Shown here piece after piece: positions 59,101 to 62,100 of a stretch of 64,000 bases of DNA. A program made the position numbers. Where the stretch lies: NCBI RefSeq assembly GCF_003334785.1, contig NZ_QOWV01000002.1; one strand, 5' to 3'. Within the stretch, counting starts at the first letter, position 1; each line of letters begins with the position of its first letter. The stretch is from Escherichia coli. GTDB taxonomy: Bacteria > Pseudomonadota > Gammaproteobacteria > Enterobacterales > Enterobacteriaceae.

Positions 59101-62100
59101 TAAGCAATGAGGACACTACTTTCGGTGAAGTGGGGGAGTTAAAGTCACCTGCTATGCAGGTGACTTTATCCAGGCGAACGCGTTATCAGAACGCGTAGTT
59201 AAAGTTAGTACCGAACAGCCAGGCTTTACCTTCAGACTCGAACTGGTATGGGCCTTCGTTAATTTTCACGCTCTGACCGTGCATATAAGAAACACCAACG
59301 TCGACTGAAGCATCTTTATTAAATGCGTAAGTCGTACCTGCACTCAGCCAGAAACGGTCCTGGTCCGGAATGGAGATAGAACGATTCTGTGCAGGAACTG
59401 GGCTGTCATCAAAGGCGATACCGGTACGGAAGGTCCAGTTATCATCGTAGTAATAAGTGGTACCCAACGCGATGCGGTAAGCATCTTTAAAGCCTTCATG
59501 TTTCTGGAACAGCGTGTCGCCACTGGTTGAGGTCGCTTTCAGCTGCTGGAACTGACTCCAGCTGGTGTAAGCCAGGCTATAGTGAATCGCCCACTGTGGA
59601 TCAACACGGTTATAACCTGACACTTCCCACATTTCAGGCAGGTTCAGCGTCAGATAACCCGATTGCGTTGCGCCACCTGTCGCGGTAGGAATTGGCAAAC
59701 CGTAGTTATTAAACGCACGATTAAGATCGCTGCTGTAGTTACCTTTGAAGTCAATTTTCACTTCAGAACGGTAGGTCAGTGCATAGCGGTTATTTTTATC
59801 CAGTTCATACAGGATTCCGGCGTTCCAGCCAAAGCCCCACTGGTTACCGTTCAGATGAGCGATTTTGGTATTACTGTCAATACCGTTGGCGGTAGCTGCC
59901 AATGCTTGCCCTTGCTGAGTTTGGCCAGCAGGAGATTGCATAATTTGGCCAGCAACCAACTGCCCCAGATCGCCTGCGAAACGTTCAATTTTCGCGCGAG
60001 CGTAGACGGCGTTGAAACCAAGACCAAAGCTCCATGCATTATTTAAGCGATACGCACCGCTTAAGTTCAGGTTCATGGTTTCAAGGTCGGTTGTACCCCC
60101 GACAGAGCCGCCTGCATAAGTATCGTTAAACTCTGTAGCCAGACCATAGTTAGAGGTAATAGAAGCGCCCCAACCAAATTGGTCGTTAATCGGTGCAACA
60201 AAGTGCATGTTCGGAACCCATGCCGTAGGCGCGATGTTATCGGCTTTCAGGCTACGACCAGATGGAGACGTTCCGCTGATATTTACATCCGGGTCAATAT
60301 AAACCGCACCCGCAGAAAATGTCGGGCGGTCAAACATAGTAATCAATGCGGGGTTACGGCTGACGTTACCTGCATCATCGGCAATTGCGCCTTCCCCTGA
60401 ATAAGCCCGGCCCAGGCCAGAGGAAGAAAATTCGTTTAACTGAAAGCCTGCCGACCAGGCCTGGGTGGAGATAAGTGCCACTGCGACTGCGAGAGCAGAC
60501 TTTGTAAACAGGGTTTTCTGGCTCATGACCATAACCTCAATGATTTATTTTTATACAAACTATGTTACGTGCTGTAACAGGAGCGCGAAGTGTAGGGTCT
60601 GAGGTACATCTTAGAAATCAGACCAGTGGCGAGAGTATAGGTCGGACCAGCTGGAATGTTGCAAGTATGTTTCTATCTTTTTTCAAATATGATCTAAGAA
60701 ACGCGATCCAGCTGGCAAAATTTGGAGGTGGCGCACTCATGGATTCGGGTGAATTTTGTTTTAGATCATTTTTAAGTGTGATTTCGGTCACTTATCCGAT
60801 TTTGCAGAATTAACAACTGGAGCAGCACTTTCCGGAAGCGTAAAATATCCACAACGTTTATCTGGCACCTTGGGTGCACATACAGAGGAAATCAACGATG
60901 AGTAAATGTAGTGCTGATGAAACCCCGGTTTGCTGCTGTATGGATGTTGGCACCATTATGGACAACTCCGACTGCACCGCGTCTTACAGCCGCGTGTTTG
61001 CAAACCGCGCAGAAGCAGAGCAAACGCTGGCGGCGCTGACTGAAAAAGCCCGTAGCGTGGAATCTGAACCTTGCAAAATCACCCCGACTTTCACTGAAGA
61101 GTCTGACGGTGTGCGCCTGGATATCGATTTCACTTTTGCCTGCGAAGCTGAAATGCTGATTTTCCAGCTGGGTCTGCGTTAATTCCTCTCGGGTACGTAC
61201 GCCCCTGTCAGTTGCTGGCAGGGGCGTTTTCTTTTCTCTTCTTCTTTTCTCTCTGTGTCATAGCTCCCACTTTCCCTTTTCTCCACTTGGCTAAATGTAA
61301 AAAAATGGTTAAGACTATGATCAGGTCAGACCACTTTATTTATTTTTTTACAGGGGAGTGTTATGGGTCAGGTTTTACCGCTGGTTACCCGCCAGGGCGA
61401 TCGTATCGCCATTGTTAGCGGTTTACGTACGCCTTTTGCCCGTCAGGCGACGGCTTTTCATGGCATTCCCGCGGTTGATTTAGGGAAGATGGTGGTAGGC
61501 GAACTGCTGGCACGCAGCGAGATCCCCGCCGAAGTGATTGAACAACTGGTCTTTGGTCAGGTCGTACAAATGCCTGAAGCCCCCAACATTGCGCGTGAAA
61601 TTGTTCTCGGTACGGGAATGAATGTACATACCGATGCTTACAGCGTCAGCCGCGCTTGCGCTACCAGTTTCCAGGCAGTTGCAAACGTCGCAGAAAGCCT
61701 GATGGCGGGAACTATTCGAGCGGGGATTGCCGGTGGGGCAGATTCCTCTTCGGTATTGCCAATTGGCGTCAGTAAAAAACTGGCGCGCGTGCTGGTTGAT
61801 GTCAACAAAGCTCGTACCATGAGCCAGCGACTGAAACTCTTCTCTCGCCTGCGTTTGCGCGACTTAATGCCCGTACCACCTGCGGTAGCAGAATATTCTA
61901 CCGGCTTGCGGATGGGCGACACCGCAGAGCAAATGGCGAAAACCTACGGCATCACCCGAGAACAGCAAGATGCATTAGCGCACCGTTCGCATCAGCGTGC
62001 CGCTCAGGCATGGTCAGACGGAAAACTCAAAGAAGAGGTGATGACTGCCTTTATCCCTCCTTATAAACAACCGCTTGTCGAAGACAACAATATTCGCGGT

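Follow-up and report, generated by a model that had tools for sequence, protein, structure and literature searches.

FadR operators upstream of fadL and fadIJ in Escherichia coli: sequence, conservation and promoter geometry

The regions upstream of fadL and fadI in the window, i.e., the whole 64-kb stretch of E. coli DNA that was analysed, almost certainly carry three operators of the GntR-family regulator FadR. Two of these, O1 and O2, are arranged in tandem in front of fadL and one is present as a single box in front of fadIJ, the probable mode of action being repression by promoter occlusion that is relieved by acyl-CoA. The sites are already known and there is nothing novel about them. 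A preliminary description of this DNA had pointed out FadR operator-like sites at both genes and had regarded them as expected regulation, which is correct in that these are already-characterised FadR sites exerting textbook control. Their identity as FadR operators is supported by the published fadL EMSA probes, which match the window exactly, by the listing of fadIJ as a FadR-repressed operon (PMC9329746) and by conservation across species. Beyond annotation this matters little: the fadL-yfcZ-fadIJ locus in the window is the canonical one of E. coli, its FadR control is intact, and two promoters are located.

The fadL-yfcZ-fadIJ locus and its three boxes

The window is E. coli chromosomal DNA, and the 3.6 kb around the sites are 100% identical to K-12 MG1655. 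The gene names fadL and fadI that had been proposed are correct according to the annotation of this identical K-12 DNA. Outside the fad locus, the window and MG1655 are not colinear in a BLAST comparison, the differences comprising an IS insertion, tRNA copy number and the DNA at 49251-54096. The 3.6-kb fad region itself is present in all complete E. coli genomes (5426 of 5426). The fadR gene is located outside the window; it is annotated in K-12 and occurs in 5423 of the 5426 complete genomes. The features of the locus are listed below in the order of their coordinates.

59186-60526, minus strand: fadL coding sequence (RefSeq annotation of the identical K-12 DNA)
60612-60628, minus strand: fadL operator O2 (site 2), CACTGGTCTGATTTCTA, inside EMSA probe fadL-FadR2
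60634-60639, minus strand: candidate fadL −10 hexamer TATACT, read from the sequence, overlapping the 3′ end of O1
60636-60652, minus strand: fadL operator O1 (site 1), AGCTGGTCCGACCTATA, containing CTGGTCCGACCT, inside EMSA probe fadL-FadR1
60777-60792, no strand assigned: CRP-type palindrome TGTGATTTCGGTCACT, conserved in the fadL-yfcZ intergenic region; context, not a FadR site
60898-61182, plus strand: yfcZ coding sequence (YfcZ/YiiS family, function unknown), diverging from fadL and preceding fadI
61199-61237, plus strand: intrinsic terminator of yfcZ, with a 13-bp stem containing nine G-C pairs, followed by a T tract
61320-61336, plus strand: fadIJ operator, ATCAGGTCAGACCACTT (minus strand AAGTGGTCTGACCTGAT), containing TGGTCTGACCTG
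61363-62673, plus strand: fadI coding sequence (3-ketoacyl-CoA thiolase), first gene of the fadIJ operon (annotation)
from 62673, plus strand: fadJ coding sequence, running off the window (annotation)

The terminator of yfcZ, which occupies 61199-61227 ahead of its T tract, is strong and separates yfcZ from the fadIJ promoter. Since it lies upstream of the fadI box (61320-61336), this box is part of a separate fadIJ promoter region.

Two 12-mers had been put forward as the cores of the operators, i.e., CTGGTCCGACCT upstream of fadL and TGGTCTGACCTG upstream of fadI. Each of them is observed once in the window, at 60639-60650 and 61322-61333 respectively, both on the minus strand, compared to 0.01 and 0.00 expected copies. 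The range that had been given for the sites, 60615-61333, does include both 12-mers, although its first position is not that of CTGGTCCGACCT (60639). Position 60615 instead falls inside O2 (60612-60628) and not in the quoted 12-mer. At fadL, O1 had been cited, whereas O2 had been left unnamed, even though it lies inside the range. The label “minus strand” for the fadI site is meaningless, since the sites are palindromic.

The first motif, that of fadL, is situated 101-126 nt upstream of the fadL ATG, and the fadI site is located 43 nt before the fadI ATG at 61363. The sites had additionally been thought to help confirm the gene starts. This holds only weakly, because operators are markers of promoters and transcription starts and not of start codons; the fadL operators, which precede the start codon by about 100 nt, do not discriminate between an ATG at 60532 and the annotated ATG at 60526.

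The FadR consensus is given as aaCTGGTCnGACC(T/A)Gtt in a 2022 review (PMC9329746). The 17-bp consensus AACTGGTCNGACCWGTT, taken from the same review for the search, matches only O1 and the fadI site in the 64 kb when at most three mismatches are allowed, with 0.52 matches expected. The mismatches, two in the fadI box and three in O1, are all located in the flanks. O2 has five mismatches and displays the consensus feature only in part, its left half-site being perfect and its right half-site degenerate. The palindromic core TGGTCNGACC, which is common to both 12-mers, occurs exactly twice in the 64 kb, both times at the sites discussed here (0.23 expected from shuffles). Besides these consensus matches, there is exact correspondence to the gel-shift probes fadL-FadR1 (GCAACATTCCAGCTGGTCCGACCTATACTCTCGCC) and fadL-FadR2 (CTCTCGCCACTGGTCTGATTTCTAAGATGTACCTC) (PMC4259882, Table 2), which are found verbatim at 60628-60662 and 60601-60635 of the window, respectively.

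Conservation across species and matrix scores

Within E. coli, footprinting is uninformative, since all 5426 genomes share at least 95% identity here; the 62-nt stretch with the twin operators is fully identical in 4782 of these. Footprinting across species was conducted by means of a degenerate DNA pattern derived from the N-terminus of fadL (AGFQLNEF), which retrieved 120 loci from species-representative genomes. About 110 of these 120 are Enterobacterales fadL loci. Eight of the matches came from unrelated phyla (Verrucomicrobia, Planctomycetota and others), lacked homology to FadL and were dropped. In most of the Enterobacterales loci of the set, the order fadL, yfcZ, fadI is kept.

An O2-like box (.ACTGGTCNG...) is found at about −102 from the fadL ATG in 99 of 102 loci, and an O1-like box (..GGTCNGACCTATA) at about −126 in 90 of 102; O1 is missing in Edwardsiella and Photorhabdus. 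In 86 of 87 loci, the centres of O1 and O2 are 24 bp apart. In front of fadI, the best match to the position weight matrix (PWM) described below retains the GGTCNGACC core intact in 82 of 83 loci, with Dickeya as the sole exception. This box is separated from the ATG by 40-59 nt in most loci, whereas five have a distance of 68-115 nt. An alignment of 27 genera gives a column identity to E. coli of 0.92 for O2 and 0.83 for O1, compared to 0.66 for the other fadL intergenic columns, while it amounts to 0.92 for the fadI box, compared to 0.55 elsewhere in that spacer.

The half-sites GGTC/GACC are fixed in each of the three boxes, while the central base is free (A, G, C or T), as would be expected of a dimer that reads two half-sites. 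The cross-species conservation independently supports the proposed operator function. The sequence CCTATA is invariant in all 90 O1-like boxes, and the conservation of O1 is probably due in part to the −10 hexamer rather than to FadR.

The PWM was constructed from six independent FadR sites, i.e., those of fadBA, fadD1, fadD2, fabA and fabB (PMC4259882) and that of fadE (PMC10272880), in both a symmetrised and an unsymmetrised form and with the three test boxes excluded. The maximum score in random 64-kb sequence has a mean of 13.0 bits and a 95th percentile of 15.8. With 17.98 bits, the fadI box ranks first in the 64-kb window and lies above the 95th percentile of the random maxima. For O1 the score is 11.6-14.5 bits (rank 4 or 2), which is within the chance range of this small six-site matrix. 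For O2, the same small matrix gives 6.1 bits (symmetrised) to 9.5 bits (unsymmetrised, rank about 13), which equals background. The remaining moderate matches in the window are all located inside coding sequences, namely those of xapR, nupC, evgS, evgA and intS.

Sequence score alone would not establish O1 or O2. A poor score against a FadR matrix had been proposed as the result that would refute the operators, and under this test the fadI box comes out on top, while O1 is borderline and O2 resembles background. A small PWM is however an invalid criterion for refutation here, because O2 scores like background although it is a proven FadR site. The PWM was rejected as the deciding test, as it does not separate O1 and O2 from window-wide chance. 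In practice this means that PWM scores alone under-call real FadR sites. As O2 is the weakest box by score and yet the most widely conserved one, positional conservation is the better criterion for annotation of the FadR regulon.

Promoter geometry, FadR control and alternative readings

The boxes overlap the putative −10/+1 regions of both promoters, which fits repression by promoter occlusion. Since a generic sigma-70 scan called neither the fadL nor the fadI promoter, we infer the exact −10 and +1 positions, and hence the geometry of occlusion, from conservation and from the published distance of a CRP site. Read on the minus strand, the fadL promoter has the sequence TTGCAA-19 nt-TATACT-ctcgcc-A, which suggests a transcription start at about A60627, inside O2. 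With a start at 60627, O1 would span −25 to −9 and O2 −1 to +16, positions with which the original fadL footprint coordinates presumably agree. For fadL, a CRP site validated by EMSA has been described whose centre lies 157 bp ahead of the transcription start (PMC3460868). The palindrome TGTGATTTCGGTCACT, with its centre at 60784.5, would lie at exactly 157 bp if fadL transcription started at 60627, and would then coincide with this published CRP site. At fadI, the candidate −10 hexamers are TAAGAC (61310-61315) and TATGAT (61316-61321), either of which would put the transcription start inside the fadI box, the predicted position being near 61322-61330 on the plus strand. Folding of the fadL 5′ UTR yielded an overall z-score of −0.66, and no global structure is claimed.

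FadR control of these genes is well described in literature. Sites 1 and 2 of fadL bind FadR in vitro with equivalent affinity, and oleoyl-CoA at 25-50 μM releases FadR from both (Feng & Cronan, PMC3460868). Deletion of fadR causes a 2-2.5-fold derepression of fadL, and Citrobacter, Klebsiella and Enterobacter share the fadL sites as well as the distance between them (PMC3460868). According to the 2022 review, FadR directly represses fadL as well as fadIJ, with sites that overlap the transcription starts (PMC9329746). The same review describes FadR-dependent induction of fadIJ by long-chain fatty acids and treats the fadIJ transcription start as a prediction that derives solely from genome-wide mapping (PMC9329746). 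Direct binding of FadR at the fadI box would be supported by the review's citation of Campbell et al. (2003), together with conservation of the box.

A FadR dimer recognises (A)ACTGGTC-N-GACC(W)GTT, which is an imperfect palindrome. In the proposed mechanism, O1 would cover the −10 hexamer and O2 the transcription start of fadL, while at fadIJ the single box would cover the −10/+1 region, downstream of the yfcZ terminator. When fatty acids are lacking, bound FadR would thereby block RNA polymerase. Once long-chain fatty acids are imported and activated, the resulting long-chain acyl-CoA would bind FadR, which would then leave the DNA, leading to derepression of the genes.

Besides operator function, two trivial explanations of the boxes can be considered. 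Chance matches to a short GC-rich palindrome might be suspected, as the core has only 9-10 specified bases, a random 64-kb sequence gives 0.23 copies and PWM scores of 12-14 bits arise by chance. However, both cores in the window sit in fad promoter regions, at a position that is conserved across Enterobacterales, and binding data have been published, so that chance can be dismissed. Alternatively, the conserved blocks could represent nothing but core promoter elements (−10, +1), with an incidental likeness to the FadR consensus. O1 does contain the invariant CCTATA(CT), like the fadL −10, and the fadI box overlaps a plausible −10, either TAAGAC or TATGAT. Nevertheless, this explanation is hardly credible. 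A core promoter leaves the invariant GGTC/GACC inverted repeat with its free centre, present in three boxes, unexplained, as well as the conserved upstream half-site of O1 and the downstream part of O2, and it is contradicted by the published direct binding of FadR (PMC3460868).

PdhR and LldR are FadR-subfamily GntR paralogues that share the TGGT...ACCA core, and genomic SELEX reports weak binding of both proteins in these intergenic regions (PMC7660256, PMC10272880), so that the sites may be occupied by more than FadR alone. For LldR, a peak was found in the yfcZ/fadL spacer and the LldR boxes listed for it are O1 and O2, at 11/14 and 9/14 (PMC10272880). For PdhR, there is a peak at fadI (PMC7660256), where the FadR box matches the PdhR consensus AATTGGTNNNACCAATT at 10/14 positions and the box chosen by the authors (61367-61383) at 7/14. 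Still, it is very improbable that the boxes serve mainly PdhR (pyruvate) or LldR (lactate) as operators and resemble FadR sites only secondarily. The SELEX intensities are low compared to those of the cognate lldP and pdhR targets (for LldR, 6.6 versus 62.9; PMC10272880), and the FadR consensus (GGTCNGACC) describes the boxes better than that of PdhR/LldR (TGGTNNNACCA, flanked by AAT/ATT). Moreover, binding of FadR and its release by acyl-CoA have been shown directly on the exact fadL probes (PMC4259882, PMC3460868). The regulon logic, with genes for fatty-acid uptake and beta-oxidation, fits FadR too. PdhR and LldR would be at most an extra layer and no replacement. A more tentative idea, doubtful but conceivable, is that the three boxes serve as shared operators for FadR (acyl-CoA), PdhR (pyruvate) and LldR (lactate), including a PdhR peak at fadI that arises via the FadR box. 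If true, three metabolic signals would be combined at the fadL and fadIJ promoters through competition for a single palindrome, and the FadR box (10/14), not the published 7/14 box inside fadI, would account for the PdhR SELEX peak at fadI. The idea of a shared operator is partly in the literature already and would be an incremental refinement.

Comparison with known systems

The DNA of the fadL operators, their tandem arrangement and their gene context are all identical to those of sites 1 and 2 of the E. coli K-12 fadL promoter, which were reportedly described as FadR sites by DiRusso et al. in 1993. The gap between the two sites is 8 bp as published versus 7 bp here (60629-60635, between the 17-mers), which is a matter of box definition. 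The K-12 fadIJ (yfcYX) site, which PMC9329746 credits to Campbell, Morgan-Kiss & Cronan (2003), belongs to the same locus, which is 100% identical here. As presented in the review (PMC9329746), it is likewise a single box near the fadI start; presumably it is the one at 61320-61336.

PdhR boxes (AATTGGTNNNACCAATT) and LldR boxes (AANTGGTCNGACCANTT) share the palindromic TGGT...ACCA core with the fadL and fadI boxes, whereas the A/T-rich flanks of the PdhR/LldR consensus are unmatched in the latter. The effectors differ as well, i.e., pyruvate or lactate for PdhR and LldR versus acyl-CoA for FadR. The operator of fadBA, ATCTGGTACGACCAGAT, which is present in the FadR-DNA crystals (PDB 1H9T, 1HW2), has the same 17-bp dyad, with TGGT and ACC half-sites and a central base, and the E. 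coli FadR sequence matches these DNA-bound structures. Compared to the GGTA-C-GACC of fadBA, the fadL and fadI boxes read GGTC-N-GACC and have less symmetric flanks, with O2 retaining one good half-site.

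Palindromes in the fadL–yfcZ region and the fadL start codon

Besides the FadR operators, two palindromes are found near fadL, and positions relative to this gene are counted from its inferred transcription start, approximately A60627.

60562-60578, minus strand: perfect inverted repeat TGTTAC-N5-GTAACA in the fadL 5′ UTR, about +50 to +66
60777-60792: CRP-type palindrome TGTGATTTCGGTCACT in the fadL–yfcZ intergenic region, kept across genera

In most of the approximately 100 Enterobacterales loci, the arms of the 5′ UTR repeat are invariant while the 5-nt spacer is free to vary, and one variant, TATTAC..GTAATA, preserves the symmetry. 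RNA folding places a 6-bp hairpin formed by the repeat in both the MFE and the centroid structure. The repeat lies at the same place as a 'CRP site' with its centre at 57 bp past the fadL start, to which CRP did not bind when tested (PMC3460868). It is either a candidate RNA hairpin or a candidate protein-binding palindrome.

The intergenic palindrome TGTGATTTCGGTCACT is located at approximately -157 from the fadL start, which is unusually far. The TAAAAT hexamer at 60841-60846, which is conserved and precedes the divergent yfcZ, lies about 60–70 bp downstream of the palindrome. Because of these two distances, TGTGATTTCGGTCACT might be a class I CRP site for yfcZ, in place of or besides fadL.

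The preliminary description regarded the FadR sites as an aid in confirming gene starts. At fadL, these sites do not distinguish between the ATG at 60532 predicted by the ORF finder (448 aa) and the annotated start two codons downstream at 60526 (446 aa), the candidates being separated by the interval 60527-60532. In tblastn alignments across species, the first aligned position is residue 1 of the 446-aa form.

Loss and gain of FadR boxes

Sequence comparison indicates that particular lineages have lost some FadR boxes. In Dickeya oryzae (L018), the fadI box has decayed to ATGAGTTCAAACCTCCT, and at fadL operator O1 is absent and the second operator, O2, is near consensus. O2 is the sole box left at fadL in Edwardsiella (L020, L071, L082) and Photorhabdus (L024, L044). 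Loci with Pantoea/Erwinia-type sequence contain a third FadR-like box, AGCAGATCTGATTTTAT (PWM score 11.7 bits), at a fixed position of approximately -186 from the fadL ATG, upstream of the fadL promoter (e.g., L053, L081, L092, L104, L106); it has no recognisable counterpart in E. coli.

Published LldR and PdhR boxes

In a genomic-SELEX study of LldR, the yfdY/lpxP box is listed as tAtaGGTCgGACCAgcT (Table 1 of PMC10272880). This sequence is fadL O1 in reverse complement and is not found in the lpxP–yfdY spacer (29868-30219), where the closest match has six mismatches. The table entry is probably a mistake. For PdhR, the genomic-SELEX peak at fadI was attributed to cAgcGGTaaaACCtgac (PMC7660256), which is located at 61367-61383 within fadI codons 2–7 and matches the PdhR consensus at 7/14 positions. 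The fadI FadR box (61320-61336), 45 bp upstream of cAgcGGTaaaACCtgac, matches at 10/14 by our own count, and it explains the peak more plausibly.

Comparison with K-12 MG1655

Comparison of positions 1-54096 with MG1655 showed that the window is not from this strain. MG1655 carries an IS insertion next to nupC that the window does not have, and the window contains fewer tRNA-Val and tRNA-Ala copies than MG1655. At 49251-54096, the window has approximately 4.8 kb of differing DNA, whereas K-12 carries CPS-53 prophage genes there.
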